NCBI GenBank assembly: GCA_046350795.1
Contig: JAXLZT010000001.1
Location: forward strand, 389,164 to 453,163
Origin: Minisyncoccota bacterium
GTDB taxonomy: Bacteria > Patescibacteriota > Minisyncoccia > Phycocordibacterales > CALRHW01
Direction of reading: 5' to 3'
Length of the DNA: 64,000 nt
Under the pieces are notes generated by a model. That model saw only the letters and a list, made by a program, of their open reading frames with translations. It was not told where the DNA came from and ran no database searches. Of the stretch, positions 4,116 through 60,281 are shown one piece after another (position 1 is the first letter of the stretch; each line of letters opens with the position of its first letter). The translations under genes were made by a program, and so were the position numbers.

Positions 4116-4133
4116 TGTAAATAAGCGTGTCTT

Positions 4134-4174
4134 TTATAAAAGAAAGAAGCGGTAGACCACGTGGGTCCACCGCT
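4134..4174 (-). terminator. GC-clamp hairpin with TCTTTCTTTTAT tail (island-style terminator)
   Basis: AGCGGT...ACCGCT stem with inner GACC/GGTC pairing. On the minus strand it is followed by tctttcttttata. Confidence 0.4.
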
Positions 4175-4193
4175 CCGGATGAGATTGTTCAGC

Positions 4194-4904
4194 TCATCGC
4201 TGTTGTTCGGTCAGGTCACAGATTGCGGTGTACTGAAACACCTTGTTTCCGGACGTCGACGCTGGTCTTGACCGGAAAGCCATTACTGGCCCCGTCAGTT
4301 TCTCTCTTCCGAGATCAATCTGTCGCCCAGGCAGGTGTTTGGCTTTCACCACTCCACCATCGGCTTGCTGGAGCTCTAGGTCGAGCTCCTTGTCTGAAAG
4401 AATGGTTACTTTCTTGACGTTTGATGGCAGGTTTTGCCAATCCGACCACACCCCCGGCTCAGATGTGATCAGCAGGTTTGTCGAGCCAGCAACACTTGTT
4501 GCGATCACTTTCGGCGTTGAAGCCCTTACCACCAGACCGATCACACCAGAAATGGCCACAACAAAAGACGGTACCAAGATGATCAGGATCCACACGATCT
4601 TGAGGATCTTGCCCCAGGACCACTTGCGCGGGTCTGGACGAATCCAGAAGAGGGTGGCGATGAGCAGGATCACTCCACCAATCCATGCCAGGACCGGCCA
4701 CATGGAAGACCAGATGGCATAGAAGTCCGGTGGAGTGACGCTCTTTGAGACGATGCCGACGATGATAAACGTCGCCAGCAGACTGATCATTGTCAAAGCA
4801 TTCTTGGAGAATGCTTGAGTTTTGATCCACTTGGTAGCGACCTTCCTGTTTCGCCAACCAAGAACGACTCGATTGGTCACGTTTTTTCTCAGCCAATTCT
4901 TCAT
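4194..4904 (-). CDS. GC-rich membrane protein (three N-terminal TM helices plus a roughly 110-aa soluble C-terminal domain); possible NfeD-like partner of the adjacent SPFH protein
   Basis: Perfect SD (AAGGAGGTGAA) 2 nt ahead of the ATG at 4904. The composition is GC-rich. The product assignment is inferred only from its adjacency to the SPFH gene. Confidence 0.45.
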   Translation of the reverse strand: MKNWLRKNVTNRVVLGWRNRKVATKWIKTQAFSKNALTMISLLATFIIVGIVSKSVTPPDFYAIWSSMWPVLAWIGGVILLIATLFWIRPDPRKWSWGKILKIVWILIILVPSFVVAISGVIGLVVRASTPKVIATSVAGSTNLLITSEPGVWSDWQNLPSNVKKVTILSDKELDLELQQADGGVVKAKHLPGRQIDLGREKLTGPVMAFRSRPASTSGNKVFQYTAICDLTEQQR

Positions 4905-5039
4905 GGTTCACCTCCTTGGTGAATATGATTTTGTAGGTTTACCCGGAAGTTTACAAGGAACAATTCCTTATGTCCACTGCTTTAATACTAGCACAATTTT
5001 ACTTAAAAGTCAAGCATCTCAAATATGAAAATAATCGTC

Positions 5040-5084
5040 TTTTTAAATGAAAGGGCCGCGCAGCTCTGAAGAATTGCGCGGCCC
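5040..5084 (-). terminator. GC-clamp hairpin terminator downstream of SPFH gene
   Basis: GGGCCGCGCA...TGCGCGGCCC stem followed on the minus strand by TTTCATTTAAAAAG. Confidence 0.5.
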
Positions 5085-5115
5085 GTATTGATTCACACAC
5101 ATCACCTTGCGGTGA

Positions 5116-6300
5116 TTACTTGCCGTCGTTGGAAAGAGGCAATGTCACCCCAGGTACTTGACCAAGGACCAGTGTTCCCTTGACTTGGGAGTACTTGTCT
5201 GCCATGTACATGGCAGCTCCAGCACCATTGCCGGCGGTAGCAATCGCACCATAGCCCTCAGCTTGCGCTTTGAGCATGGCTTCTTCACCCTTTGCCTTGG
5301 CGACCAGATTGGCCTCCTCAACATTGGCCTTGGCTTTACCCTCGGCTTCAATGCCGGGAGCAGCAGCCAACTTCATCTCAGCTTCTTGACGTGCCCGCTG
5401 GATTTCCAGCTGGCCTGCGATGTACTCAGGTGGGGCTTCGATGGCCACAAGTTTGATCTCGACGATCTCTTGTCCCACCGTTTCCATGATACCGGGGTAT
5501 TCTTTGTCCCCGATCACCACCTTTTCGTTGACTGCCATGAGCGCTTGGATGAGTTCTGAGTTAGCCTCAATCCTTCCACCAGACGTTGTCAAACCCTTGA
5601 TGATTGTCTCAAAGGTTCGTCCTTCCTTGCCTGCGTACTGAAGCAGACCAGAAAAGATTGCCACCTTGACCCTGTTGATCCAGTCGCCCGGATTTGATGA
5701 GGTGCCAAAGAGTGTCTTGTGGACGTTTCTCGTTCTCAGCTGTACTGAGAGACGAAACTTCAGCTTGTTCTGTTTGCTGTCTTCCACTCCATCGATCTCC
5801 ATTCCGTACTGGTATGTACAAAAATGGAGTTGGATTTCCTCGGGTTCATGTGGGACGATCTTGTCGCCATCCACTTTTTCCCAAGCAAATTTCCACCTCA
5901 ATGGCTTGAAAATCGGATACCATCCGATCCACTCATAACCGTAGAGGCGGTGGATGAAGCTTCTTTCAAAGTCTCCTGGGAGTACTTCTCCACTGCCACT
6001 TGGACAGAGATGCTCACCCTTTTTCCAGTGAAACATCTTGTGCACGGTGCCACCATGCATGACCACCGCGTCGCAGTTTTCCTGCGCTTTGATGAAGAAT
6101 TTGGTGCCTCCATCAACCTTCGGATCGGCGAGCCGAGCGATGATGACACCGCACACCCACCAAGCCAGAAAGGTCAGACCACCCACCATGGCAATGATGC
6201 CGAGTGTGATGAACGCTGACACCGGTCCAAAGACCAGCCATGACAGGACGAATCCTGCCACGAGGGAGAACCAGAAAGACCAGCTCTTGAGAAAATTCAT
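5116..6300 (-). CDS. SPFH/band-7 (flotillin/YqiK-like) membrane protein, GC-rich
   Basis: Two N-terminal TM helices. The C-terminal region is rich in E/A/K/Q repeats (QLEIQRARQEAEMKLAA...AEGKAKANVEEANLVAKAKGEEAMLKAQAEGY), typical of flotillin-like proteins. SD AAAGGGGTG. Confidence 0.55.
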   Translation of the reverse strand: MNFLKSWSFWFSLVAGFVLSWLVFGPVSAFITLGIIAMVGGLTFLAWWVCGVIIARLADPKVDGGTKFFIKAQENCDAVVMHGGTVHKMFHWKKGEHLCPSGSGEVLPGDFERSFIHRLYGYEWIGWYPIFKPLRWKFAWEKVDGDKIVPHEPEEIQLHFCTYQYGMEIDGVEDSKQNKLKFRLSVQLRTRNVHKTLFGTSSNPGDWINRVKVAIFSGLLQYAGKEGRTFETIIKGLTTSGGRIEANSELIQALMAVNEKVVIGDKEYPGIMETVGQEIVEIKLVAIEAPPEYIAGQLEIQRARQEAEMKLAAAPGIEAEGKAKANVEEANLVAKAKGEEAMLKAQAEGYGAIATAGNGAGAAMYMADKYSQVKGTLVLGQVPGVTLPLSNDGK

Positions 6301-6358
6301 TGCGCACCCCTTTCAAAAGGTGTTAGTTGTTTATCTACCCAGAGGTCAATATCGTGAA

Positions 6359-6375
6359 AGTGGCAACGTGCCACT
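6359..6375. promoter_or_regulatory. perfect palindrome AGTGGCA-ACG-TGCCACT in the 5'UTR of the SPFH gene
   Basis: 7-bp inverted arms lying between a TTGACT/TATACT-like promoter (about 6405-6435, minus strand) and the SD. Confidence 0.3.
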
Positions 6376-6456
6376 TGTGTGTGATTACAAAAAACTCCAC
6401 CCTGATTAGTATAACAAAATACTACAAAAGTCAAGATTAGATAATCTCCACAAAAG

Positions 6457-6593: not shown

Positions 6594-6666
6594 TCCGCCC
6601 ACCAGGATTCGAACCTGGGACCCACCGCTTAAGAGGCGGTTGCTCTACCAACTGAGCTATGGACGG
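6594..6666 (-). tRNA. tRNA-Lys (anticodon CTT)
   Basis: 73-nt cloverleaf. Acceptor CCGTCCA/TGGGCGG, D-arm GCTC-AGTTGGTA-GAGC, anticodon loop CTCTTAA, T-arm CCAGG-TTCGAAT-CCTGG. Confidence 0.8.
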
Positions 6667-6763
6667 TTATTAAACCTTGGTTTCAAACTACCAAAACAGC
6701 TATGGACGGTTATTAAACCTTGGTTTCAAACTACCAAAACAGCTATGGACGGTTATTAAAAGT
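6658..6763. repeat. 2.4 tandem copies of a 43-bp unit that begins inside the 5' end of tRNA-Lys
   Basis: The unit gctatggacggttattaaaccttggtttcaaactaccaaaaca repeats with exact 43-bp period (tatggacggt at 6658, 6701 and 6744). Confidence 0.85.
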
Positions 6764-6785: not shown

Positions 6786-6834
6786 CTACATAAAAGAATA
6801 GAGCCGGGCAAGAACAAGTCGTGCCACAGGCTCT
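6786..6834 (-). terminator. GC-clamp hairpin with ATTCTTTTATG tail
   Basis: AGAGCCGGGCA...TGCCACAGGCTCT stem, downstream of the 83-aa membrane-protein gene. Confidence 0.4.
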
Positions 6835-6865
6835 GGGGTGGGGAGATGGCGACTGTGATGGTGGC

Positions 6866-7117
6866 TCATCCGTGAGCGGTCTGACGCATCAGAAACGCGT
6901 GGTGCTTCTTGGCCAGTATCTCTGACACAACCAGAATGTTCACCGCTGCAATCGTGACGGTCACCAACATGCAAAGCATCGCTGGGAAGATCGGCCAGTA
7001 GAGGAAGTCCTTGGTGGTCTGGTGCTGGTACATGAAGTACACAGCCATGACCGCAACCACCAGGCCGATCAAGTCCGTCAGTATGAGCCACCTGATCTGG
7101 CGGCGCAACTTTTTCAT
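6866..7117 (-). CDS. small GC-rich two-TM membrane protein (83 aa)
   Basis: Two hydrophobic helices. SD AAAGGAA precedes the ATG at 7117. Preferred over the overlapping 128-aa ORF 6786..7172. Confidence 0.45.
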   Translation of the reverse strand: MKKLRRQIRWLILTDLIGLVVAVMAVYFMYQHQTTKDFLYWPIFPAMLCMLVTVTIAAVNILVVSEILAKKHHAFLMRQTAHG

Positions 7118-7261
7118 GCCATTGTTCCTTTTCAGCTAGTGTTTGTCGCATCTCCACGACCGGAACTGTCATTTTTTACGATTATGACAGCACCCACATT
7201 ATCTAGTTTTTTTTGATAAAAGTCAATAAAAGTAATACACATATATCGGATTCTTGTATTG

Positions 7262-7309
7262 GTTGAAAAATAAAATCCGCCGGACACCACGAACGTGGGC
7301 CGGCGGATT
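7262..7309 (-). terminator. hairpin AATCCGCCGG...CCGGCGGATT with T-rich tail on minus strand
   Basis: 10-bp GC-rich stem followed on the minus strand by TTTATTTTTC. Confidence 0.4.
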
Positions 7310-7342
7310 GGCGGAGGTGCGAGTTGGTTTGCAGGGATCGGG

Positions 7343-7678
7343 TCAAACACAAATGACCAAAGTCCTGTTGACGTGAAGTCTGATGTCTGTGATGAGCTCG
7401 TGGTCATCACTGCCGACGAGCGCTTGGATGATCTGCGACAGCTTGTTGAGGATCAGCCCTCGAATCGAGCTTGGCACCTCGGAGATTGCCAAGGTGATCA
7501 TCAAAGCCACCCCCTCCGGAGAGAATTCGTCCCCAGCCTTCTTGAGGAGAAGGTGATTGAATCCTTTCAGGTTTAGGTTGTCGATCGAAAACAGCCGATC
7601 ACACAGCTGGTTGTGTGGTGGGAGGACGATCACCTTCGTCTCACGGCCACACCGATCATTGTTCTCACTTGTCCGCAT
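7343..7678 (-). CDS. GC-rich hypothetical protein (111 aa)
   Basis: ORF with SD-like GAGAGG and its own terminator. A palindromic operator-like site lies upstream. No recognisable domain. Confidence 0.4.
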   Translation of the reverse strand: MRTSENNDRCGRETKVIVLPPHNQLCDRLFSIDNLNLKGFNHLLLKKAGDEFSPEGVALMITLAISEVPSSIRGLILNKLSQIIQALVGSDDHELITDIRLHVNRTLVICV

Positions 7679-7712
7679 CTGCTAGCCTCTCAATGTGCAA
7701 ATTTACCACGAT

Positions 7713-7733
7713 CCTTGTGGTAAAGGGTCGACG
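7713..7733. promoter_or_regulatory. perfect palindrome TTACCAC-GATCCTT-GTGGTAA upstream of the 111-aa gene
   Basis: 7-bp inverted arms located 35-55 nt upstream of the start codon at 7678. Confidence 0.3.
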
Positions 7734-7932
7734 CTCACCTGAGCGCAGACAAGAAAGAAATATATCACGATAAATAGAGTGGGTCAAATAAGAGGGGTGT
7801 GAGTATCTTTTGTTCAAGTTATACTTTGTGTTTTTTTATCCACCACTTTTTTATAGCAGGTAGATATTGTATAGAAATAAAAAATCCTCTTGAGGTTTTT
7901 TAATTTTTTCTTCCATGTTTAAATCCTAAATG

Positions 7933-8016: not shown

Positions 8017-8487
8017 ATTTTTTCTATTTCTTCCACGATGAGTTGTTTTTAGACTATGGCAATTTGGACAAAGAATTCTTAGGTTTTCTAATCTGTTGTC
8101 GTTATGTTTACCATTAATATGATCCAACTCTAGAGGTAATCTACCATCTTCTGACCATTTTGCCCACCCGCATTCTTCACACATAGCTTTCATTAAACCA
8201 TCTCTTAGTAACCTTTTTTTAAGTTTAAAACTCTGATAGGTGCTATTTTTAATAAGGATTTTTTCAATAGGGATTATTGGTTTGCCAATGCCAATCAGTC
8301 CTTTATTCCAGCTTTTTCCTTTAAAATGGTCAATGGGTATTTTGTATAACTCAATGAACTTCTTTATTTGAGAATAATTGCCACCCGCAGGAATAAGCTT
8401 AAGTTTTTTAATGACTTGTCGTGTACTCGTAGAAGAAAGACAGGCCTCTAATAGTTGGGCCTTTGTCCAAGATTTTTTTCTCTCCAT
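8011..8487 (-). CDS. HNH endonuclease
   Basis: C-terminal HNH motif LELDHINGKHNDNRLENLRILCPNCHSLKT. The start was moved to the internal Met (MERKK) because the longer ORF runs through tRNA-Cys. The stop codon overlaps the 5' end of tRNA-Leu(TAA). Confidence 0.6.
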   Translation of the reverse strand: MERKKSWTKAQLLEACLSSTSTRQVIKKLKLIPAGGNYSQIKKFIELYKIPIDHFKGKSWNKGLIGIGKPIIPIEKILIKNSTYQSFKLKKRLLRDGLMKAMCEECGWAKWSEDGRLPLELDHINGKHNDNRLENLRILCPNCHSLKTTHRGRNRKNA

Positions 8488-8547
8488 ATAAAAAAGTATA
8501 CCTACCTGAGATAATGGAAATCTAAAGAAGTTATAGAGAAACACTAG

Positions 8548-10544: not shown

Positions 10545-10599
10545 AAAGGCTTAATTTGACACTATAACACAAAAAATACAAGTATTTTGTACCGTACTT

Positions 10600-11076
10600 C
10601 TATTTTGTGTTTACTTCAGATTTAGATTTTGCCACCACTTCTTTTTCTTCGTCGGACATTTCGTATTCGGAGCTAAAGTTTTTCAAGGGTTTTGAAAACA
10701 CGCTGATCCGCTCTCGGGAGTGTAAGCTAGACATTACCACACCATCGCCATTTTCATTTAAGAATGAAGTAGAAAAACTTTGATTGCCTCCAGCACCAGT
10801 ACCCTTAAAAGGATTAAATCTTATAGTTTCTACGCTTTGTATACTTTTACGTAATCTTTTCTCTATATTTAAAAAGTGTGCGCTAGCTTTTTCAGAAAAA
10901 TCCTGCATAGCTTTTATTTCTGTACGAATGATGTTCATGCCTTCTTCTATGTTTTTTGCATTTGTGCCACCTAGTATATTTTTTATTTTTATTTCTAGGC
11001 GAATGAGAAGTGCTATAAAGATCAATATAACAGCTAATACAATGTATAAAAAAATGTCTTCTGAAATGGGTATCAT
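10600..11076 (-). CDS. membrane-anchored hypothetical protein (DUF4446-like?)
   Basis: N-terminal TM helix, coiled region and an RFNPF motif. The family assignment is tentative. Confidence 0.4.
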   Translation of the reverse strand: MIPISEDIFLYIVLAVILIFIALLIRLEIKIKNILGGTNAKNIEEGMNIIRTEIKAMQDFSEKASAHFLNIEKRLRKSIQSVETIRFNPFKGTGAGGNQSFSTSFLNENGDGVVMSSLHSRERISVFSKPLKNFSSEYEMSDEEKEVVAKSKSEVNTK

Positions 11077-18904: not shown

Positions 18905-18933
18905 TTGACTTTTTGTATATAGTATGCTATTAT
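18905..18933 (+). promoter_or_regulatory. sigma70-like promoter TTGACT-17-TATTAT
   Basis: Near-consensus -35/-10 with a 17-bp spacer, upstream of the GC-rich membrane-protein gene. SD AAAGGGGGG at 18986-18993. Confidence 0.45.
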
Positions 18934-18997
18934 TATATGGTAAACACAGTCACGGAAAGCTCATTCCCAACTTCAACTCAACAGAAAGGGGGGTCAC

Positions 18998-19645
18998 ATG
19001 ACTCTTCAACAAATCTTTGCCATGTCCTCGGCGGTTCTCATGGTCATTGGTTCGGTGTGGCAGGTGTATGTGGCGATTCGTTATCCAAAGAAGGTCAGAC
19101 CAACTCTCGCGAGCTGGATCATCTTCTCCACCACTTTGACGTTGTCGTTTGTCACGTACTGGACCACCAAGGAACGAAACCTGGTGTCCAACGCAGCAAA
19201 CGCATCGGCAATGGTGGGTGCGCTCATTGTGTTTCTCGGAGCGCTGGCGATGCACATTCGAAGTGGTAACAAGTTGGCGTTCTCGCGCTTCCAGAAGGGA
19301 AGTCTGACATGCGCCAGCTTGATCGCTCTCGTGTGGGTCGTGATGGTTTGGGGTTTGGGATATAGCGGCCTTGTGCCAAACATCCTTACCCAAGTACTCA
19401 TGATCATTGGTTATTGCGTCACGGCCGACAAGGTGTGGCGTGCGACGAGCACTTCGGAGTCCTTCTTCTTGTGGTGGTGCATTTTCGCCTCTAGTATGCT
19501 GGGACTTGTCCCAGCGTGCGCGAGACTCGACGCTCTTGCGATCTTGTATGCCACCAGAGCCACTGTCTGTACCGGTCTTCTCCTGATCCTTCTGTATCGG
19601 ATCAAGAGTCGGTCGTCGCAGGCAAGTCTGGTCACCGTGGTTTGA
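18998..19645 (+). CDS. GC-rich 6-TM membrane protein (215 aa), paralog of 45634..46194
   Basis: Hydrophobic multi-TM profile. Shares the ASWI...GAL(I/L)V...SES(F/W)(F/W)LW motifs with the island protein at 45.6 kb. The antisense ORF 18950..19654 was rejected. Confidence 0.5.
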   Translation: MTLQQIFAMSSAVLMVIGSVWQVYVAIRYPKKVRPTLASWIIFSTTLTLSFVTYWTTKERNLVSNAANASAMVGALIVFLGALAMHIRSGNKLAFSRFQKGSLTCASLIALVWVVMVWGLGYSGLVPNILTQVLMIIGYCVTADKVWRATSTSESFFLWWCIFASSMLGLVPACARLDALAILYATRATVCTGLLLILLYRIKSRSSQASLVTVV

Positions 19646-19704
19646 GGGCTCCACTCATGAGTTGGATGTAAGGTAGCGAGGTGGGTACCATAACTCCACC
19701 CAAA

Positions 19705-19746
19705 AGCTGCGCAAAGACGAAAGTCAGTGCGCAGTTTTCTTTTTTA
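19705..19746 (+). terminator. hairpin CTGCGCA...TGCGCAG followed by TTTTCTTTTTT
   Basis: 7-bp GC stem with a 14-nt loop. The tail overlaps the dnaE stop codon. Confidence 0.5.
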
Positions 19747-23574: not shown

Positions 23575-23586
23575 AAAAAAGAAAAA

Positions 23587-23612
23587 GGGGCCGCGTCGCA
23601 TGACGCGGCCCC
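23587..23612. terminator. perfect GC hairpin GGGGCCGCGTC-GCATG-ACGCGGCCCC, bidirectional
   Basis: Flanked by A-run on the plus side and, on the minus strand, by the CTTTTTCTTTTTTTT tail. Confidence 0.5.
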
Positions 23613-23649
23613 TTAGAGCTTACCCCACTCACACCCGACCGATCACTAC

Positions 23650-24375: not shown

Positions 24376-24390
24376 TGTCTTTGCCTTTCT

Positions 24391-24406
24391 ACCGTGCTTG
24401 CACGGT
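24391..24406. promoter_or_regulatory. palindrome ACCGTGC-TT-GCACGGT in the 5'UTR of the 241-aa gene
   Basis: Perfect 7-bp arms located 16-30 nt upstream of the start codon. Confidence 0.3.
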
Positions 24407-26452: not shown

Positions 26453-26460
26453 TATTTTAA

Positions 26461-45540: not shown

Positions 45541-45601
45541 TTTTCAAAAGAAAACGCCGCACCGAGAGTGTGCCCGACGGGCGTCCTCTCTAGTGCGGCG
45601 T
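45541..45601 (-). terminator. hairpin ACGCCGCAC...GTGCGGCGT followed (minus strand) by TTTTCTTTTG
   Basis: 9-bp GC stem with a 30-nt loop. Confidence 0.45.
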
Positions 45602-45633
45602 GTATGCCGACATGGTTTTTGTGCCAGCTTCCC

Positions 45634-46194
45634 TTATCTGAGAACCAGCACTGTCATCGTGGTGTTCAGGACGAAGCATCCGCATGGGATGAGACGCTCC
45701 TCGATTGTCCACTTCTTTGCTCCATAGCAGGAAAGGACGCAAGAGAAAGCGACACCAGCCCATAGCCACCAACTCTCTGAGTTCGGTTTCAGCCACGCAT
45801 CATACATGGCTGGAAACGCAGCGATCGTCATGGCGGTCATGCAAGCGACGATTGCCAACTTGGGGCCAGATCTCCACCAGCAGATCACCGCGACTGCCAT
45901 CCCGATGGCAGAGATCATTTCCACCAGACCCCAATGCCACGTTCCTTTCCCGAGAAGGATGATCGTGACGAGGAGAGCTCCGAGTGTGAACCCAGCAGGA
46001 AGCCAGGGTCGCTTGTTGCCGGCTGCAACGCAGCCAACAAGGATCAGGGCATCAAGCACTGTCCACATGATCCAGCTCGCTGTATTCTGGGGTAAGTCGT
46101 GTACCATCAGATAGACAGCGAAGGCGACGATCACGATCGTCGAGATCAATCCTCCAATCAGACCGATTCTCTTTTTCAAGAGTTCGTTTTGCAT
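45634..46194 (-). CDS. GC-rich 6-TM membrane protein (186 aa), paralog of 18998..19645
   Basis: Shares the ASWI, GAL(L/I)V and SESWWLW motifs with the 215-aa island protein. SD GAAAGG. Inverted repeat GGCCGCAT...ATGCGGCC upstream at 46244-46286. Confidence 0.5.
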   Translation of the reverse strand: MQNELLKKRIGLIGGLISTIVIVAFAVYLMVHDLPQNTASWIMWTVLDALILVGCVAAGNKRPWLPAGFTLGALLVTIILLGKGTWHWGLVEMISAIGMAVAVICWWRSGPKLAIVACMTAMTIAAFPAMYDAWLKPNSESWWLWAGVAFSCVLSCYGAKKWTIEERLIPCGCFVLNTTMTVLVLR

Positions 46195-46550
46195 CGTTAG
46201 CCTTTCGGTTTGTTGTGATTCTTAGACTGCTGCCCACGATATTGGCCGCATTTTTCAAGACCCGGAAGATCCTAAAAGATGCGGCCAACGAAAACCATAT
46301 CAAGGAACTATTACGCGAAATAATAGCATACAAAAATAAAAAAGTCAATAAAAAAGAAGGCCACCCCCAAAAGGGTGGCGCTGAGGGTTGTTATTGACTT
46401 GTCGAATGGTGTTTCGCCCGGCGAGTCAATGCTGAGAGACATGCTGTACGCGAACTCGCTCTGTCAGAGAGGTTGGTGAAGTTGACTTTTTTCTACAATG
46501 TCTTAGTCTGTTTGAGGACATCACCACATACAAAAGAAAGGAGGTGATAA

Positions 46551-47468
46551 ATGATCCGTAAAAATGGAAGAGGTGGTGGCACTCAGAGCGATACGTCCGA
46601 ACTGCTTCGATTTTTTTCGGGCAAGATTGAGCAATACCCCATTCTTACAAGAGAGGAGGAGGTGGAGCTTTTCAAGCGTATCGAAGCTGGTGACGTACAG
46701 GCAAGAGAAGACCTGGTGTATTCAAACGTACGCATCGTCATTAAGACGGCCTTCGTGTACTGGAATATATCTAGAAAACGTTATGGGCCAATCCATTTCG
46801 CTCTAGATGATCTGGTCCAGGTGGGGTTCACCGGTCTCTATAGGGCCGTTGAGAAGTTTGACTGGCGACGCGGGAACAAGTTTTCCACATACGTCAGTTG
46901 GTGGATTCGTCAGGCGATTTCGAGGCTGATATGCAATACGGGTAACACAATCAGGTTGCCTGTGAATTTGCAGGCACGTATCTCGAAATATCGGAAGACT
47001 GTCATCCGCCTTACCAAGGAACTAGGCCGTACTCCTCATCTAGTAGAGATAGCTGGGAGGATGAAGCTGAGGGTGGATTGTGTCGAAGAACTGATAGCGA
47101 TTACTCAGATTCAACCCATGTCACTCGACGAGCCGTCTTCACCAGAATCTCCAGACAGCACGCTTTTATCTGTTATACCGACCAAGGGTGTTCAGCCATG
47201 GAGAGATGTTCATAGGCAGAATATTCTGGCGTTTAAACAGGAGAAGATCGAGAGGGTGTTGAAATCTCTCACTTCTCAAGAACGTGATGTCATCACATTG
47301 CGCTTTGGTCTTGATGGGCAGGGTGAGCGCACTCTTGGGGAGGTTGGTAAGTTGTACGGTGTTACTCGAGAGCGGATTAGACAGATAGAGGGCAAGGCAC
47401 TTCTCAAACTTCGCGAACGCCACGAAGAAGATCTCGCCGAACTTCTTTTCGAAATGGGCGACAAATGA
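46551..47468 (+). CDS. second sigma70-family sigma factor (group 2-like, no region 1.1), moderately GC-rich
   Basis: Regions 1.2/2 (QYPILTREEEVELFKRIEAGD, FSTYVSWWIRQAISRLI), 3 and 4 ([19 protein letters not shown]). Perfect SD AAAGGAGGTGA. Upstream inverted repeat ATTGACT-N24-AGTCAAT at 46393-46430. Confidence 0.7.
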   Translation: MIRKNGRGGGTQSDTSELLRFFSGKIEQYPILTREEEVELFKRIEAGDVQAREDLVYSNVRIVIKTAFVYWNISRKRYGPIHFALDDLVQVGFTGLYRAVEKFDWRRGNKFSTYVSWWIRQAISRLICNTGNTIRLPVNLQARISKYRKTVIRLTKELGRTPHLVEIAGRMKLRVDCVEELIAITQIQPMSLDEPSSPESPDSTLLSVIPTKGVQPWRDVHRQNILAFKQEKIERVLKSLTSQERDVITLRFGLDGQGERTLGEVGKLYGVTRERIRQIEGKALLKLRERHEEDLAELLFEMGDK

Positions 47469-47469
47469 T

Positions 47470-47512
47470 GAACCATGCGTGAGATTTTTGCGCGTGGTTC
47501 TTTCTTTTCTAA
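47470..47512 (+). terminator. hairpin GAACCATGCG...CGCGTGGTTC followed by TTTCTTTTCT
   Basis: 10-bp stem with island-style tail. Confidence 0.5.
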
Positions 47513-52164: not shown

Positions 52165-52193
52165 TTGACATTGGGCTGTATAGTGTGTATAAA
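52165..52193 (+). promoter_or_regulatory. consensus sigma70 promoter TTGACA-17-TATAAA
   Basis: Perfect -35 and a 17-bp spacer. Palindrome TACCGA-TTGTG-TCGGTA at 52206-52222 in the 5'UTR. Confidence 0.5.
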
Positions 52194-52255
52194 TTGTTTT
52201 GGAAGTACCGATTGTGTCGGTATTTAGGGGTACAAACTTAACGGAGATTTAGTCC

Positions 52256-52759
52256 ATGACGAAGACGTCATTAAAGTTTCGTGTCCGAACTCACGGGATT
52301 GTGGTTGATGTTCGACAAGACAGCAAGTGGGTCAATGCAATTTCTGTGATGGCCGTCATGCGTCCCGGCTCTTTTGATGTGAGCCGGGTAGGCGGACTCT
52401 ATCCTCCCGTTGGTAATGGGATGATCAAGAAGAGCCTCACTCTGCTGAATTTCCCAGAAGGTGACGGTGGTTTGGACAGTGCTGTTGTTTGGGCCAAGGA
52501 TAATGGCCTGAAAACAGTCGAACCACGTTCACTTTTTGCCATCAAGACGGCACACCCCGGACTTCACAAGAAGATCGGTCAGGGTGGGGTAGTTCTCGTG
52601 GAGACTGTCGGATGTACGCTGAATCATACTGGCTTCCCTGACAAACGCCATCTGTGTTGCGTTGTCTTGGGGGACGGTGTGCCCGCTGTCGGACTGTTTC
52701 CGGTCAACCAATTCAACGGCTTTGGTAGCCACGACACCTGGTTTGTGTTTAGTGACTAG
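52256..52759 (+). CDS. GC-rich hypothetical protein (167 aa)
   Basis: ORF flanked by its own consensus promoter and terminator. No recognisable motif. Confidence 0.5.
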   Translation: MTKTSLKFRVRTHGIVVDVRQDSKWVNAISVMAVMRPGSFDVSRVGGLYPPVGNGMIKKSLTLLNFPEGDGGLDSAVVWAKDNGLKTVEPRSLFAIKTAHPGLHKKIGQGGVVLVETVGCTLNHTGFPDKRHLCCVVLGDGVPAVGLFPVNQFNGFGSHDTWFVFSD

Positions 52760-52795
52760 TGTGTTGGCACCAGAAACCAGACTTCAGTCTCACTT

Positions 52796-52840
52796 CCGCG
52801 CGAGCGCCTCATGGCCCTCGCGCGGTTTCTATTTTCTATA
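52796..52840 (+). terminator. hairpin CCGCGCGAG...CTCGCGCGG followed by TTTCTATTTTC
   Basis: 9-bp GC stem. Confidence 0.55.
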
Positions 52841-54768: not shown

Positions 54769-55515
54769 ATGTCTATTTTCCCAATAAACAAAAATCTGGG
54801 CGAAACGCCCCTAGAAGCACTCAATCATCTGCGTATAGAGCGACCAGAATACAAAGATAGTCCGATGACATATGCTGGCAGGCTCGACCCAATGGCCGAA
54901 GGCGTGCTTTTAGTGCTGACGGATGAAGACAATACTCGTCGTGAGGAATTTTTAGGCTTGGAAAAAGAATATGAATTTGATGTCCTTTGGGGTGTCGAGA
55001 CTGACACATATGATGTACTTGGCAAAATTGTCGCAGAGAAAATCCCTGCGGTTTTTGATAAAAAAGAATTCACAAAGATGATTGAAAAATATACAGGAAT
55101 ATACAATCAGCCGTATCCGCCGTATTCATCTCAGCCGGTAAATGGCAAACCACTTTTTGCATGGGCTCGCGAAGGGCGACTCGGTGAAATAGAAATTCCA
55201 AGTAAAGAAATAGATATTAAAAAACTCGAACACGTGGGCGACAGACGCATCATCACTGCAGATTTAAAAGAAAAAATACTTGGCAATATTGCGCTAGTGA
55301 AGGGGGATTTTCGACAAAAAGAAATCGTGGATCTGTGGCAGAAATTTTTCTCCAAGCATCCAAGCGCTATTTTTACTTTTTCTACATTCCGCGCGACTGT
55401 GACTAGCGGGGCATATATGCGTGGGCTGGCGCATACTTTTGGGCGCGAGCTTGGATGTGGTGGTTTGGCTTTAAAAATCATCCGCACAAGAGTGGGGAAA
55501 TATCAGAAAGACTAA
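54769..55515 (+). CDS. truB: tRNA pseudouridine55 synthase (TruB family)
   Basis: Catalytic motif TYAGRLDPMAEGVLLVL. Confidence 0.8.
   Translation: MSIFPINKNLGETPLEALNHLRIERPEYKDSPMTYAGRLDPMAEGVLLVLTDEDNTRREEFLGLEKEYEFDVLWGVETDTYDVLGKIVAEKIPAVFDKKEFTKMIEKYTGIYNQPYPPYSSQPVNGKPLFAWAREGRLGEIEIPSKEIDIKKLEHVGDRRIITADLKEKILGNIALVKGDFRQKEIVDLWQKFFSKHPSAIFTFSTFRATVTSGAYMRGLAHTFGRELGCGGLALKIIRTRVGKYQKD
55376..55430. repeat. 55-bp segment of the truB 3' coding region, copy 1 of a direct repeat (copy 2 at 55836-55890)
   Basis: tttttctacattccgcgcgactgtgactagcggggcatatatgcgtgg(g)ctggc occurs twice, about 460 bp apart, with one indel. Confidence 0.8.
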
Positions 55516-55544
55516 TTTCGAAGCGGATGTTTTTCGGGGTGGGG

Positions 55545-55573
55545 TTGACATTATTTTTTTTGTATGTTAGTAT
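55545..55573 (+). promoter_or_regulatory. sigma70-like promoter TTGACA-17-TAGTAT
   Basis: Located in an AT-rich stretch just after the truB stop codon. Confidence 0.4.
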
Positions 55574-55579
55574 CTGTCT

Positions 55580-55843
55580 CAGAACATTCTGATGCTGTCT
55601 TTGGTACTATACGGCTGATCCCCGTATAGACCGGTGGTAGTCAACCCACCCGATAGATAATGGTAAGATAGCAAGCTAGTATTGGGCATCACGTTGCAAA
55701 AGAAAACTTCGTGAGCCGGTGGTAGTCAACCCACCTAGTGAGAAAAAGTATGGCAGTGCTTTATCTCATCGACTTGTCTCAAAAACAAGTCAACAACAAG
55801 TCTGCCAACACAAACACCACGCACATGTGGTGTTTTTCTTTTT
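55580..55843 (+). ncRNA. candidate about 260-nt noncoding RNA with two identical stem-loops, ending at an intrinsic terminator
   Basis: No ORF of 60 aa or more. The 20-nt element CCGGTGGTAGTCAACCCACC (hairpin GGTGG-tagtcaac-CCACC) occurs at 55631 and 55705. Terminator ACACCAC-GCACAT-GTGGTGT plus TTTTTCTTTTTC at 55813-55843. Confidence 0.35.
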
Positions 55844-55890
55844 CTACATTCCGCGCGACTGTGACTAGCGGGGCATATATGCGTGGCTGG
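55836..55890. repeat. copy 2 of the 55-bp truB-derived direct repeat
   Basis: See copy 1. Begins with the T-tail of the ncRNA terminator. Confidence 0.8.
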
Positions 55891-55938
55891 CTTTTAGAAT
55901 ATTAAGAAAAAGAGTAGGGAATTATATTTCGGAATAAT

Positions 55939-55967
55939 TTGACTTTTTTAAATATTACTGATTAAAT
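55939..55967 (+). promoter_or_regulatory. sigma70-like promoter TTGACT-17-TTAAAT
   Basis: Upstream of the 164-aa island ORF. Confidence 0.4.
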
Positions 55968-56018
55968 GTTGGAGACGTTCTTAATGTTCGACCAATGTCC
56001 ATCAACTCAGGAGGTGTC

Positions 56019-56513
56019 ATGTCCACGACGACAGAACCAACTATCGCCTGTCTGGAGGACAGGAAGAGTCTCATCGAGGCGGCCGTGAAGAGACTCATCG
56101 AAGACTGCGAAGGTCAGCTGCTGGTGAAGAAGGGAGAACGGGCGAATATCACCATCACGCTCGGGGTCGGACTATCCGATGAACGACCCCACCATTCGTT
56201 CAAGGTGGATCTCAAGGTGCAAAGCAAGTCTGACAGGATGCGCACCCTGGGTCCTGTCACGACTGTAGAGGAGTGGTCGCGACTGAGCAATCTCAGCTTC
56301 CGGTCTCCAGCCATCGCCGAGTTCATCCAAGCTCTCAAGCCAGTTGCTGGCAAGTCAAGATCTGCTCGCGCCGGAGATTTCTTCCGGTATGGCAACGAGA
56401 TTCACAGCATCAATCAGAAGCTTCGTGACAGCGACATTCGAATGAGGGTGAGAGGAACATATGGGGGCATGTTCCAAGATCGCCACTTCACTCTCGTGAG
56501 AGTGGGGCATTGA
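56019..56513 (+). CDS. GC-rich hypothetical protein (164 aa), candidate toxin-like partner of the upstream ncRNA
   Basis: SD AGGAGGTG sits 5 nt before the ATG at 56019 (the alternative upstream ATG at 55995 lacks an SD). No recognisable motif. Confidence 0.5.
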   Translation: MSTTTEPTIACLEDRKSLIEAAVKRLIEDCEGQLLVKKGERANITITLGVGLSDERPHHSFKVDLKVQSKSDRMRTLGPVTTVEEWSRLSNLSFRSPAIAEFIQALKPVAGKSRSARAGDFFRYGNEIHSINQKLRDSDIRMRVRGTYGGMFQDRHFTLVRVGH

Positions 56514-56540
56514 TGGATCGACGAATTTCGGGAAGCAATG

Positions 56541-56590
56541 GCCCGAGGTGTGTGCTTCAGTGCACATGCCTCGGGCTGTTTCATTTGTAG
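56541..56590 (+). terminator. hairpin GCCCGAGG...CCTCGGGC followed by TGTTTCATTTG
   Basis: 8-bp GC stem just after the stop codon. Confidence 0.45.
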
Positions 56591-57045
56591 AAAATATTTA
56601 TCCCATGTTATTGTTATATCGGATTGTGGGGTGATGCGTTTATTCATTACTGATTCCTTTCCTCCTAACCTGAGGAGATCTAATGCTCTAACGAATGAAC
56701 ACAAAGAGGAAAAAGCACCACGTGGACTTGATCACCTACGTGGGCGAGGTGGGTAGCAAATCCCCCCAGTTGTTTCTGGGCAAGAAGGGTGTTGTGATGC
56801 ATGCACATGGCACTTGGTGGTCCGCGGTCGCCGCTACGCCCTTCCCAAGCCGGTAGCTCTCGTCTGACTGCTTTCCAGTGGCAGATGATCTACTCAGTAT
56901 GGACATTCATTAGTTCGATCGTGTGTCCGTATGAACCCCTAGAGGAACAGGGGTTAGCAGAATGGAATCGAACACGCTACCGCGTTAATGCTTTCGCGGT
57001 GAGGCGAGATAAGAGCATCCGGTTGCCTCGTAGGCATCCGGCGTC

Positions 57046-57090
57046 ACCACCGAACTGCGCGCACGCGTACTCGGTGGTATTTTAATTATA
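57046..57090 (+). terminator. hairpin ACCACCGA...TCGGTGGT followed by ATTTTAATTAT
   Basis: Ends the GC-rich noncoding stretch 56590-57090. Convergent with the typA stop codon. Confidence 0.4.
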
Positions 57091-57096
57091 TTGTTT

Positions 57097-58851
57097 CTAT
57101 TTCTTAAGACTTTTCTTTCTCAGTCTCACACTCTCAGGGGTGATTTCTATAAAGTCATCTTCGGCCATGATTTCCATCGCGCGTTCGATTGAAAGCTTGA
57201 ATGCTGGTACCAAAAAGATTCCTTCGTCAGATCCAGACGCACGCATGTTGGTGAGCTGTTTTCCTTTTGTGGGATTCACATACATTGTGTCGCCTTTTGT
57301 AACATTTCCTACGATCATTCCTTCGTATACTTCTGTTGTAGGCTCGATGTATAGGACTCCTCGTTCTTGCAAGTTAGCCAAAGAGAAAGCTAAAGCTTTT
57401 CCTCCTGCCATAGAAACCATTGAGCCATATGACTGCTTTTTTATTTCTCCTACGTGTGGTTTGAATTCTGTAAATCGGCTTGAAATAATTCCTTCGCCTT
57501 TTGTGTCGATGACAAATTGTCCTCGATATCCGAGTAGGCCACGAGTTGGGATTTCAAAAATAATTCTTTGATGACCCTGCTCTTGCTTCATGTTTGTAAG
57601 GATTCCTTTTCTTTCGCCGAGTCGAGCAATGACGGCACCAGCACTTTCATCCGGCACATCTACTATAACTTCTTCAAAAGGTTCATAAGTGACTCCGTCT
57701 ATTTCTTTTAATATAACGTTTGGCTGTGATACTTGTAGTTCAAAACCTTCGCGTCGCATATTTTCTAGCAAGATAGCAATGTGTAACTCTCCACGACCAT
57801 AAACTGTAAAATGCTCTCCTTCATTAAAATTTACTTTCAAACCGACATTTATCTCAAGCTCTTTTTCTAGTCGATCACGAATCTGTCTTCCTGTGACATA
57901 TTTTCCTTCGCGTCCAGCAAAAGGCGAGTCGTTTACTAGAAAATTTAGGGAAATTGTTGGCTCATCTATTTTAATAGCAGGTAGCGCTTCTTGATCTACA
58001 TTTTGGCAAATAGTTTCTCCGATATATATCTGAGGAAGTCCGGCTATCATCACTATGTCTCCAGCTGTTGCTTCGTTTATTTCCTTTTTTTGTATTCCTT
58101 CAAATGTGAAAATTTTAATTAATTTTCCTGAGTAGTTTGTTCCATCAACTTTTTTTACTACCACAGGCTCACCAACCTTTATTTTTCCTTCATACACACG
58201 GCAGACAGCTAGACGTCCGAGGAAGTTGTCGTAGCCAAGGTTGAAAGTTTGCATGCGAAGTGGTGCTGATGTGTCGCTCGGCGCTGGTGGTACTTGTTTT
58301 AAGATAGTTTCTAAAAGGGGAGTCAAATCTTTTGCTTCGTCTTCTAAGTTCATTTTTGCAGTACCATCTCGTCCTACAGCGTAGACAGTTGTGAAATTCA
58401 TTTGTTCATCGCTAGCACCTAGGTCAAAAAATAGCTCGAGCACTTCGTCTACTACTTCTTTTGGTCGAGCAGCTGGTTTGTCTATTTTATTTACGATAAC
58501 GATAGGTTTGAGGCCGAGCTCTAGAGATTTTTTTAATACAAAGCGAGTCTGTGGCATAGGACCCTCCTGGGCGTCTACCACGAGAAGCACTGTATCTATA
58601 GAACGAAGCACGCGCTCCACCTCTGAGCCGAAGTCGCTGTGGCCTGGAGTGTCCACTATGTTTATTTTCGTGCCTTTATATGAAATAGAGGTATTTTTTG
58701 CGTATATAGTGATACCACGCTCTCTTTCAAGGGCGTTTGAGTCCATAGTAGCGCCTTCTTCTGCGGCACCTGTTTGCTTCATTATTGCGTCAGTAAGAGT
58801 AGTCTTACCATGATCCACGTGGGCTATGATTGCTATGTTTCTTATTTCCAT
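57097..58851 (-). CDS. typA: translational GTPase TypA/BipA
   Basis: [26 protein letters not shown], and C-terminal TypA-specific domains. 584 aa. Confidence 0.85.
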
Positions 58852-58925
58852 TTTTTTGTTTTGTAACGAATGTCTATTAAAGCAGTAAAAAATAAAAGTG
58901 TCAATCTGCTCGGTGTGGACGCTCG

Positions 58926-59201
58926 TTGTTTGCCTTTATTTTACTTGGTATAATATTTTCAATGAAAGATCCACTGGCTATTTTGTCTAATTTTCATATA
59001 CACATTACTCGTGATATCGTCTGGCTTGTTTTCGTGGTCGCTTGTGCGATAGCTGGTCTTTTTAGTGCGGTTTTATTTTTTCACTGGAGAATGTATGGAA
59101 TGAAAAATTATCGTATCGTGTTGGCAGAGATGGTTTTTTTGGTAGGTATTATTTTAATTTTTATGTTTGCTTTTTCTTCTGCTTTTCAATTTACACAATA
59201 A
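58926..59201 (+). CDS. small membrane protein
   Basis: Three hydrophobic helices. No recognisable motif. Confidence 0.4.
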   Translation: MFAFILLGIIFSMKDPLAILSNFHIHITRDIVWLVFVVACAIAGLFSAVLFFHWRMYGMKNYRIVLAEMVFLVGIILIFMFAFSSAFQFTQ

Positions 59202-59202
59202 T

Positions 59203-59748
59203 ATGCTTAACCTAGAGAACGATGAAAAAATAATCTTAGAAGTGCGCAAACATTGGTTTGTGTTTTTAGGTAATGTTATCGGTTTTTTTGTTGGTGGAGT
59301 TTTGCCGATCGTCTTTTATTTTTTGATAGTTACTTTTTCTTCTTTTGATATTTTAAAAATAATTTATGAGTATAAATCTCTTTATTTTTTTATTTACTCA
59401 TTGTGGCTTCTTTTGCTTTGGGTTTTATTTTTTATACAATGGACCAACTATTATCTAGATGTGTGGTATGTGACGGAAAAAAGAATCATAGATGTAAATC
59501 AAAAGGGTATTTTCCATCGCGAAATCTCTAATCTCAGATTTGATAAAATTCAGGATATTAGTATTGAGGTGCGCGGTTTTATTGCCACCATGTTAAATTA
59601 TGGTGATATTAGTGTACAGACTGCAGCGGAAGACAGTAGTGATTTTGTTATGAAAAATGCAAGAGATCCTCAACGTATTCGCAGAATAGTTTTTAGTCAG
59701 CACAATATAGAGGCAGAAAAACTGAGAAAGGTAAAAATAGAGAGCTAG
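59203..59748 (+). CDS. membrane protein with bacterial PH (bPH_2/YdbT-like) domain
   Basis: N-terminus LENDEKIILEVRKHWFVF followed by two TM helices. Start moved to the internal Met. Confidence 0.45.
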   Translation: MLNLENDEKIILEVRKHWFVFLGNVIGFFVGGVLPIVFYFLIVTFSSFDILKIIYEYKSLYFFIYSLWLLLLWVLFFIQWTNYYLDVWYVTEKRIIDVNQKGIFHREISNLRFDKIQDISIEVRGFIATMLNYGDISVQTAAEDSSDFVMKNARDPQRIRRIVFSQHNIEAEKLRKVKIES

Positions 59749-59776
59749 ACACAAAGATATATTTTAAATAAATTAA

Positions 59777-59808
59777 GACCGGCCCGAGGAATGTCCCCGG
59801 GCCGGATT
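59777..59808. terminator. hairpin CCGGCCCGGGG...CCCCGGGCCGG, bidirectional
   Basis: GC-rich palindrome lying between convergent genes. Confidence 0.4.
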
Positions 59809-59840
59809 TGTTGAATTGCGCGCGCACTTGTTGTGTTGCG

Positions 59841-60173
59841 CTAGCCGATCTGCAGGATTTTGTTCCTGCTGATAGAGCCGAGCTTGGTGCAGACGCCGTC
59901 CACCTTCTTTTTCAGTCTGGTGGATCGAATGTCGTACGGCACGGGCATCAGGAGCGCCGCCTTCAGAAAGGCAAAGACGTTCTCGTACCACGATTCCGCA
60001 TCACAGATGGCTGTGGCATCATTGAACAACGCGGTGTTGCTCGTCGATGGTGGGTTGTGTTGCACAGATGTGCAGATGGTCTTCGAGTCACCGGTCTCAG
60101 CGGAGCTGTGGGGTGTCGAAGTCAAGCACATGATTGCGCACAGAAGGGCGAGAATGCCCACGATATTCCGCAT
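59841..60173 (-). CDS. GC-rich small secreted/lipoprotein-like Cys-containing protein (about 110 aa)
   Basis: SD GGAGGT sits 7 nt before the ATG at 60173. Signal peptide LALLCAIMC with possible lipobox. Confidence 0.45.
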   Translation of the reverse strand: MRNIVGILALLCAIMCLTSTPHSSAETGDSKTICTSVQHNPPSTSNTALFNDATAICDAESWYENVFAFLKAALLMPVPYDIRSTRLKKKVDGVCTKLGSISRNKILQIG

Positions 60174-60253
60174 GGTCTGTACCTCCATCACTAGGGGTTG
60201 GAAAGAGCACGACTCGACGCTGGAACTTCTTCTACCCGGAACTACCTTGGGAT

Positions 60254-60281
60254 ATTATATGCTAGTATTTAAATAATTCAA
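60254..60281 (-). promoter_or_regulatory. sigma70-like promoter TTGAAT-16-TATAAT
   Basis: Consensus -10. Divergent from the start of the SPOUT methyltransferase gene. Confidence 0.4.

Follow-up and report, generated by a model that had tools for sequence, protein, structure and literature searches.

The 64,000-nucleotide stretch analysed here (the window) belongs to a 562,216-bp contig (JAXLZT010000001.1) of a Candidatus Paceibacterota metagenome-assembled genome (MAG), with locus tags from U0522_02195 onward. Dispersed among its core genes are 13 GC-rich islands (ISL1 to ISL13), which are likely to be horizontally acquired, self-contained one-gene transcription units lying between core transcription units. 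They resemble morons, a moron being a single open reading frame (ORF) with its own sigma-70 promoter and factor-independent terminator, inserted between genes that are adjacent in relatives. A typical unit would comprise a sigma-70-type promoter, a short leader often with a stem-loop, a strong Shine-Dalgarno (SD) site, a GC-rich ORF usually ended by TGA, and an intrinsic terminator. The surrounding gene set is that of a reduced bacterium of the candidate phyla radiation (CPR): dnaE, a short SMC, RNase R, an AddA-like helicase, BipA, rpoB/C, dnaG-rpoD, IF2, ClpB, thrS, hisS, truB, type IV secretion system (T4SS)-pilin-like small proteins, and the ATPase and platform genes of type IV pili. An earlier reading of these letters (the original prediction) had proposed one-gene cassettes with a shared functional build. 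This description held in general, with the exception of "island 12", a composite of two non-coding units and one gene cassette.

The 13 segments are GC-richer than their neighbours, as had been noticed by eye (GC 0.511 versus 0.380 elsewhere), and add up to 11,027 bp, or 17.2% of the window. At the gene level, the 13 island ORFs were compared with 44 host ORFs of the same window. The GC content at third codon positions (GC3) was bimodal, with 0.65 ± 0.08 (range 0.51–0.80) in island ORFs and 0.31 ± 0.05 (0.21–0.47) in host ORFs (Mann-Whitney p = 6e-8). Because the first and second positions (GC1 and GC2) were shifted as well, together with amino acid usage (GARP residues 25% versus 22%, FYMINK residues 25% versus 31%), the GC bias appears to be old for the island genes and not a third-position effect alone. 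The codon usage of the islands correlated among themselves (r = 0.3–0.68) better than with the host (−0.47 to 0.32). A GC bump (0.55) was also seen within the dnaE coding sequence, at 21549–21885.

The translation signals separated the two groups as strongly as composition did. Using a match of at least 4 nt located at most 20 nt from the start codon as criterion, an SD site was found in all 13 island genes and in only 1 of the 44 host genes (Fisher p = 6e-12), a stronger contrast than had been claimed; several of the island sites read AAGGAGGTGA, while host leaders consist of A/T runs. TGA, a feature that had not figured in the original prediction, was the stop codon of 8/13 island genes and of none of the 44 host genes (p = 8e-7). 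The same association was observed in AT-rich relatives, where SD matches of at least 5 nt preceded 28 of 51 GC-rich ORFs and 72 of 587 host-like ORFs (p = 1e-11), and TGA ended 28/64 and 77/639 of them, respectively. With about 12% TGA stops in the host-like ORFs of those relatives, finding 0/44 in the window by chance has p ~0.004; no in-frame TGA was seen in the 44 window host genes either. The host core genes are operonic, have no SD sites and use TAA or TAG as stops, so each cassette arrives with a full set of expression signals of its own.

Not all of the proposed hallmarks were specific to the islands. Motifs of the form TTGAC(A/T/C)-16/18-TAnnnT are present upstream of most islands, and −35/−10 motifs and hairpin-plus-T-tail sites could be predicted from the letters for all 13 units. 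Promoter-like motifs were not enriched over shuffled sequence in this AT-rich DNA (40 versus 42.5, 34 versus 42.5, and 36 versus 40.3), and promoters of this form also precede the host genes rpoB, KH, L32 and thrS; the promoter style therefore belongs to the host and does not mark the cassettes. Thus, of the style features considered, the promoters are typical of host genes too, whereas the SD, the stop codon and the composition are not. All seven palindromes quoted for the 5' untranslated regions (UTRs) could be located, with loops that match the quoted ones to within about one base. For two of the seven, compensatory changes in homologues support an RNA hairpin. Islands account for most of the strongest hairpin terminators of the window, and TTTCTTTT-type tails follow 7–8 hairpins. 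The tail had been listed at 10 sites: it is exact at seven of them (4138, 19736, 23577, 30307, 45546, 47501 and 55835) and only approximate at 5045, 6790 and 52826. The roughly three terminators that serve host genes alone have TTTTT(G/A)TTT tails, a sample too small to carry weight. A motif common to the ISL8 and ISL9 leaders, AAGGCTAAC, occurred elsewhere at chance frequency and was set aside as a coincidence tied to the SD context.

The evidence for mobility comes from related genomes. A scan with DnaE yielded 80 related loci, in dozens of which the host genes flanking dnaE are syntenic. The sister species is represented by loci L004 and L128 (both from GCA_964403475.1), with flanking proteins 95–99% identical to those of the window. 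Empty sites of 0–120 bp were found in sister genomes for ISL6, ISL8, ISL12 and the sister-species copy of ISL9. For example, the RNaseR-SMC spacer that holds ISL8 measures 980 bp in the window and 75 bp in L004, and rnhB and the L32 promoter, 946 bp apart around ISL6, abut in L004; ISL12 is missing from the sister-species loci L128 and L130. The ISL9 homologue of L128 (74% amino acid identity) occupies another slot, hisS-truB, which is 38 bp long in the window. Upstream of addA (itself 96% identical) the sister species has a sigma gene only 40% identical to ISL10, while ISL11 is found there in the same slot at 99% identity. No homologue of ISL5, ISL6 or ISL8 occurred in any of the 80 loci, and ISL7 had a single relative among them, 25% identical and in the same slot (L006). 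In relatives, the thrS-dnaE slot of ISL5 is short or contains other fillers.

More generally, certain spacers are variable and others are not. The dnaE-rnhB, rnhB-L32, rnc-SMC and SMC-RNaseR spacers, compared over 27–70 related loci, reach 400 bp or more in roughly 30–60% of cases depending on the slot, and the operon-internal spacers of L32-NusB-rnc and RNaseR-S16-KH are almost never expanded. Overall, about a quarter to a third of the fillers are GC-rich; in this genus and in L054, L040 and L032 nearly every filler is. The GC-rich fillers of the 80 loci shared no families beyond the ones already known.

The limits of the mobile unit could be read from ISL9 and ISL8. Alignment of the two ISL9 copies starts exactly at the −35 box (ATTATTGACTTT) and stops where the terminator tail (GGTGCGGCGTTTTCTTTTG) ends, with nothing aligning beyond; in their leader hairpin, a C>T change is compensated by G>A. 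Across copies in three contexts, the leader of ISL8 (about 100 nt) and its 3'UTR, hairpin included, are near-identical and exceed the coding sequence in conservation. Taken together, these limits and this conservation indicate that the moving unit is the transcription unit itself and, with the empty sites and the switching of slots, point to horizontally exchanged, self-contained units. At the four filled/empty junction pairs the old spacer had been replaced, with no target duplication, terminal repeats or common end motif, and the empty site of ISL12 already contains, as host sequence, the T-tail of its terminator. Cassette boundaries fall at the stop codons and promoters of the neighbouring genes, which belong to the core (dnaE, SMC, RNase R, rpoD, hisS, truB and others) and not to a prophage. 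At least 8 of the 13 cassettes are aimed at the 3' end of the neighbouring gene and share or abut its terminator, so that transcription would stop there.

Synonymous divergence (dS) also argues for transfer. Between the window and L085, ISL8 has a dS of 0.36 and 83% amino acid identity, while in the same pair the synonymous sites of dnaE are saturated (66–67% amino acid identity) and thrS and rnhB are 52% identical. Conversely, the ISL9 copies of the window and L128 differ by a dS of 1.7, compared with 0.09–0.23 for core genes of these genomes, and were therefore acquired separately. The ratios of nonsynonymous to synonymous divergence (dN/dS) of 0.09 for ISL9, 0.04 for ISL11 and 0.21 for the ISL8 scaffold indicate working protein genes under purifying selection.

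ISL8 gave the most informative case. It has 1,159 homologues, none of them functionally annotated, and the few that are named are hypothetical proteins of Paceibacterota/Patescibacteria. It is the variable-protein gene of a diversity-generating retroelement (DGR). Its variable region (VR), at 30112–30232 on the plus strand, finishes in an end like that of the initiation of mutagenic homing (IMH) site, GGCTGCCAGGAAG. Compared with a same-species strain (L084), the VR shows 22 differences, 12 at first, 10 at second and none at third codon positions, which sit in NNC-type codons; 16 of the 23 amino acid changes fall in residues 217–249, and the dN/dS of the gene is 1.11 against 0.03 for the flanking SMC and RNase R. 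Of these 22 differences, 16 lie on adenine columns of the consensus template repeat (TR), so that 16/34 adenine columns vary as opposed to 6/96 others. In a set of 119 homologues, identity is 84% for the scaffold and 57% for the VR.

At least six loci of the family include a 120-bp TR located 340–390 bp downstream of the gene (about 1.6 kb in L096), and VR/TR mismatches are concentrated at template adenines (14/15 in L089, 16/17 in L090, 16/17 in L104, 14/15 in L110, 20/22 in L116 and 15/20 in one further locus). The TR is followed by bAvd and reverse transcriptase (RT) genes (Pfam PF22296 and PF00078), which lie about 0.5–1 kb downstream of the ISL8-family gene (1.7 kb in L096). Both genes adjoin nine ISL8 homologues, and avd alone adjoins two more, where the contig is cut. 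The spacer of about 250–350 nt between gene and TR is highly conserved in L089, L104, L110, L116, L096 and L090 (for example cttgctaatgtagcttggatcacggttcaagctcgcgagatatctcacc) and probably forms a structured portion of the DGR RNA. Terminase and serine-recombinase genes in some of these loci suggest phage contexts; the family was not found in IMG/VR. No TR for ISL8 was found in the window, and neither tblastn nor Pfam searches detected avd or RT there; the element ends directly after its hairpin tail and abuts RNase R, making ISL8 an orphan or remote DGR target. In an alignment of 10 leaders a long hairpin is supported by 12 pairs with double changes, and the window copy has lost that hairpin. 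As regards a C-type lectin or Ig-like fold of the VR-bearing domain, an AlphaFold model built with 41 homologues had a mean predicted local distance difference test (pLDDT) score of 50 and was unusable beyond residue 50, and no Pfam domain was recognised.

We suggest that the cassettes come from a gene pool circulating among Patescibacteria, including their phages and DGR elements, and lodge in the spacers between core transcription units. Each insertion would have swapped out the short ancestral spacer without site-specific machinery, by illegitimate or homology-facilitated recombination after DNA uptake, and the insert would then have been trimmed to the minimal expressed unit.

Several points weigh against this interpretation. 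No donor was found for the cassettes, the insertion route is argued from the absence of other signatures, and the promoters, transcripts and terminators are predictions. The comparison of filled with empty sites in other species covered ISL5 to ISL12, and among these ISL11 seems to have descended vertically after the two species diverged. In addition, the ISL8 family keeps a GC content of 0.49–0.63 across hosts of GC 0.32–0.65, and even its AT-rich members retain a strong SD. In complete DGR elements the target has a GC content of 0.50–0.56, is SD-led and ends in TGA, while avd and RT of the same elements lack SD sites and track host GC (0.32–0.44). Adenine depletion by the DGR was considered as a cause of the gene-wide GC-richness and rejected, as the AT skew over ISL8 is positive or near zero. 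This constancy, next to AT-rich avd and RT, suggests that selection on the gene class accounts for at least part of the grammar. Combined with the SD-poor core genes of GC-rich Paceibacteria relatives (15%; those of AT-rich ones are equally poor), it does not fit a simple relic of a GC-rich relative or host as donor.

The same observations, together with the link between GC-richness and SD sites across the AT-rich relatives, favour a functional gene class native to Patescibacteria, whose grammar would be maintained by selection or by a recombination-linked GC bias, with transfer only secondary. We regard this as unlikely, given the empty sites in sister genomes, the dS values of ISL8 and ISL9, orphans such as ISL6 (without a homologue in other species among 5.8 billion clusters), and the fact that GC-rich sequences are a minority of slot fillers in relatives. 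Moreover, we know of no mechanism that would raise the GC content of single genes over their whole length. A broader proposal is somewhat less doubtful and is put forward tentatively: Paceibacteria, and perhaps Patescibacteria, might possess two gene classes with different expression grammars, one an AT-rich operonic core without SD sites and with TAA/TAG stops, the other clade-wide accessory units that are GC-rich, SD-led, often TGA-ended, and individually promoted and terminated, with an accessory composition constant whatever the GC content of the host. If true, either a reservoir or vector yet to be described would have to exist, or the accessory class would be under a selective regime of its own, at the mRNA level or linked to recombination.

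A dedicated site-specific system acting in trans, whether integron-like, IS200/IS605-like or otherwise hairpin-recognising, could use the 5' and 3' hairpins as recombination sites. A hairpin stands near each end of every cassette, the ISL9 homology stops exactly at promoter and terminator tail, the TTTCTTTT tails recur, and the same slots are reused in different genomes. This explanation is nonetheless improbable: each cassette has hairpins of a different sequence, length and loop, those at the 3' side are shaped as ordinary intrinsic terminators, and the one ending ISL12 borrows a host T-tail. No conserved core sites or inverted repeats were seen at the four junction pairs, no consistent terminal inverted repeats were found across the cassettes, and the window encodes no recombinase, integrase or transposase. 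Nor is there support for the suggested family of mini-cassettes derived from a single template, since an island-versus-island comparison revealed no paralogues and the proteins are unrelated among themselves, with no shared ends.

Serial uptake from one GC-rich donor, for example a high-GC host of this episymbiont, would account for the mutual similarity of island codon usage and for SD sites and TGA stops, which are typical of GC-rich genomes. We consider it very improbable. The source-named ISL8 homologues are all from Paceibacterota/Patescibacteria, and the contexts examined are Patescibacteria-type. Furthermore, ISL9, ISL10 and ISL11 have homologues in sister Paceibacteria species, GC3 spreads too widely, and family sizes run from orphan through rare to more than 1,100 members, with no Pfam, NCBIfam, PHROG or PADLOC family pointing to another phylum. 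Chimeric assembly, contamination of the bin and deliberate or synthetic insertion, any of which would make the islands an artefact, are practically negligible as explanations, although the sharp compositional boundaries and near-consensus expression signals do look engineered. For the cassettes checked, ISL1 to ISL4 and ISL6 to ISL8, identical junctions recur, with DNA about 99% identical, in an independent NCBI MAG (GCA_964417815.1) and in Logan assemblies of other runs, the boundaries respect the stop codons and promoters of the flanking genes, and the sister species shares ISL11 and carries an ISL9 relative. Deliberate insertion is further contradicted by the origin of the sequences in natural metagenomes, by the natural DGR hypervariation of ISL8 across hundreds of metagenomes, by the ISL8 and ISL9 homologues in other slots and contexts, and by the different GC-rich fillers that other genomes have in the same slots. 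Exchange of self-contained one-gene units between core transcription units thus remains the reading we prefer.

The first four cassettes are on the minus strand and lie among four tRNA genes. ISL1 (4136–5013) has its promoter at 4985–5013, the SD site AAGGAGGTGA and an ORF at 4194–4904, ended by TGA, that encodes 236 amino acids with 3–4 hydrophobic segments; its hairpin (4146–4176) is followed by the tail TTTCTTTT, and the cassette occurs in same-species assemblies at about 99% identity. ISL2 (5045–6434) comprises a promoter at 6408–6434, a 5' palindrome at 6359–6375, an ORF at 5116–6300 and a terminator at 5053–5084. Its protein of 394 amino acids has N-terminal membrane segments and, by transitive matches, a divergent SPFH/Band 7 domain. 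In ISL3 (6786–7226; promoter 7198–7226, hairpin 6801–6833) the ORF at 6866–7117 specifies 83 amino acids with two membrane segments, has a GC3 of 0.80 and ends in TGA. ISL4 (7262–7787) has its promoter at 7759–7787, a 5' palindrome at 7703–7723, a terminator at 7274–7309 and a TGA-ended ORF (7343–7678) for 111 amino acids. A perfect 43-bp tandem repeat of 2.5 copies at 6655–6760 contains the first 13 nt of tRNA-Lys(ctt) and its upstream region; it is the only tRNA-related repeat here, and duplicates the 5' end of that tRNA. Also in this region, a free-standing HNH endonuclease ORF (8017–8546, minus strand, about 165 amino acids, GC 0.33) stands between tRNA-Cys and tRNA-Leu(taa). It is missing in the same-species strain L001, where the two tRNA genes are 40 bp apart, and is a strain-specific mobile gene of host-like composition.

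ISL5 (18905–19746, plus strand; promoter 18905–18933) encodes 215 amino acids with about 6–7 membrane segments in a TGA-ended ORF at 18998–19645, and its terminator (19707–19734) is common with the convergent dnaE. ISL6 (23575–24514, minus strand) has a weakly matching promoter at 24486–24514, a 5' palindrome at 24391–24406, a TGA-ended ORF at 23650–24375 for 241 amino acids, and a hairpin at 23585–23614 with the tail TTTCTTTT. In ISL7 (26453–27009, minus strand) the promoter (26980–27009) and a palindrome (26956–26970) precede an ORF at 26509–26916 for 135 amino acids with one membrane segment, and the terminator at 26461–26490 is common with rnc. ISL8 (29338–30316, plus strand) starts with a promoter at 29338–29366, continues with leader hairpins at 29376–29390 and 29396–29417 and the SD site AAGGAG, and has a TGA-ended ORF at 29470–30237 for 255 amino acids and a hairpin at 30276–30306, again with the tail TTTCTTTT.

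ISL9 (45541–46348, minus strand) has a TTGACT-17-TATTAT promoter with TG at 46320–46348, a leader hairpin at 46244–46286, an ORF at 45634–46194 for 186 amino acids with about 5–6 membrane segments, and a terminator at 45556–45599 with the tail TTTTCTTTT. Directly upstream of its promoter, a terminator-like hairpin without a gene (46360–46379, minus strand; GCCACCC-TTTT-GGGTGGC, tail CTTCTTTTTT) may be the remnant of a lost cassette. ISL10 (46482–47512, plus strand; promoter 46482–46509, SD site AAGGAGGTGA, terminator 47470–47500 with the tail TTTCTTTT) is the most host-like island, with a GC3 of 0.51, and its ORF (46551–47468) encodes a sigma-70 factor of 305 amino acids with regions 1.2, 2, 3 and 4. 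The genome also has a primary sigma factor of host composition, rpoD (44149–45393) with region 1.1, located beside dnaG. At the place of ISL10, the sister species has two different short sigma-70 genes in tandem (L128, 1–1309), which indicates that alternative sigma factors are within the exchangeable set.

ISL11 (52165–52840, plus strand) consists of a promoter at 52165–52193, a 5' palindrome at 52206–52222, an ORF at 52256–52759 (167 amino acids) and a terminator at 52796–52825 that is common with a convergent RNase H-like gene. The gene cassette of ISL12 (55939–56590, plus strand) has its promoter at 55939–55967, the SD site AGGAGGT, a TGA-ended ORF at 56019–56513 for 164 amino acids and a terminator at 56537–56580. 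The gene of ISL13 (59777–60281) is in fact on the minus strand, with a TTGAAT-16-TATAAT promoter at 60254–60281, the SD site GGAGGT and an ORF at 59841–60170. Its product of about 109 amino acids has a signal-peptide-like N-terminus, its GC3 is 0.76, and its terminator (59779–59805) is common with the upstream bPH gene.

Altogether, 7 of the 13 cassette proteins have membrane segments or a signal peptide. Given these, the alternative sigma factor, the SPFH protein and the DGR-diversified binding protein, the cargo would be mostly envelope-related, with functions in surface, host or phage interaction. No island protein had a match in PHROGs, PADLOC or NCBIfam. The initial statement that the ORFs belong to no recognisable family was wrong for ISL10 (sigma-70), ISL8 (a DGR target family of more than 1,100 members) and ISL2 (SPFH/Band 7).

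The two non-coding units first included in "island 12" flank its gene cassette, on the same strand. The first (55545–55850, plus strand) runs from a TTGACA-17-TAGTAT promoter through about 270 ORF-free nt to a terminator at 55812–55835. It contains two copies of an internal 20-nt repeat, CCGGTGGTAGTCAACCCACC, has a fold z-score of −6.3, is 89–94% conserved in the sister species without a match in Rfam, and is a candidate small RNA. The second (56590–57096, plus strand) is a 507-nt stretch with a GC content of 0.57, no codon-position signal and its own terminator at 57047–57077. It is 99.6–99.8% identical in the sister species, where the flanking proteins are only 95% identical, and would be either an RNA under strong constraint or a sequence transferred very recently. 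No match was found in Rfam or in GenBank phages, and an assignment to tmRNA or RNase P RNA, based on motifs seen by eye, was unsupported by ARAGORN and Rfam. Over the whole window, Rfam reported only four tRNAs at gathering threshold, and a permissive search of 55500–57110 and 59700–60320 returned nothing. Adjoining ISL12, an internal piece of truB is present as a 54-bp direct repeat (55371–55424 and 55833–55886; 53/54 identical), and L128 keeps a longer truB-like remnant (10581–10723). The duplicate at the ISL12 border is probably a scar of imprecise recombination.

In the window, about one-sixth of a conserved, syntenic core region is thus made up of interchangeable one-gene units, which three independent signals (GC3, SD site and TGA stop) mark from sequence alone. 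These signals offer a simple, testable means of splitting any Paceibacteria genome into core and flexible genes, and make it possible to track the turnover of cassettes between strains and to find diversified surface proteins, including orphan DGR targets missed by RT-centred searches. Bacteria of the CPR, mostly uncultured and with tiny genomes, are thought to live as obligate symbionts; how their surface and interaction genes vary is a central question. Accessory genes are usually AT-richer than their hosts. Those of the window present the puzzle of being GC-richer, with an initiation signal that the core genes do without.

The cassettes share features with several known systems. Like integron cassettes, they are one-gene units with an imperfect palindrome and unrelated cargo, and their insertion places are reused; integron cassettes, however, are promoterless and arrayed at one attI, with attC core sites and IntI, whereas the window units have their own promoters, are dispersed, and have hairpins without a common core motif and no integrase in the window. 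The marks of transposons, insertion sequences and miniature inverted-repeat transposable elements (consistent terminal repeats, transposase domains and, at the four junction pairs, target duplications) are missing in the window, as are those of tRNA-linked genomic islands: ISL1 to ISL4 lie among tRNA genes but have no integrase and no repeat of a tRNA 3' end. ISL8 matches DGR targets in its C-terminal VR, its NNC-codon variation at template adenines, its IMH-like end and its downstream hairpin. DGR clade 2 is confined to Patescibacteria, and targets remote from their element are on record (PMC8144416). A difference is that ISL8 has no TR, avd or RT within 64 kb, and it is the only one of the 13 cassettes of this kind.

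Horizontal gene transfer (HGT) in Patescibacteria is put at up to 13% of genome length, mostly between Patescibacteria, in the portion of a report considered here (PMC12455944). The islands described in it are alike in forming a large acquired share of a streamlined genome exchanged mostly within the phylum. That portion covers islands, single transferred genes and prophages, recognised by composition or phylogeny, and not a promoter-to-terminator unit or an SD, TGA and GC grammar.

The closest likeness is to morons, reportedly introduced by Juhala, Hendrix and colleagues as extra genes in lambdoid prophages. The cassettes have in common with them a base composition unlike that of their neighbours, autonomous expression (here predicted) and the lack of mobility genes of their own. 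They differ in lying between core chromosomal operons of a CPR bacterium, in being GC-richer than the host, and in using another translation-initiation signal and stop codon. Not being in prophages, they are moron-like in their working and not strict morons. DGRs and their remote targets were already known in Patescibacteria; the interest of the cassettes lies in the contrast in a grammar of three signals and in the reversed GC polarity.

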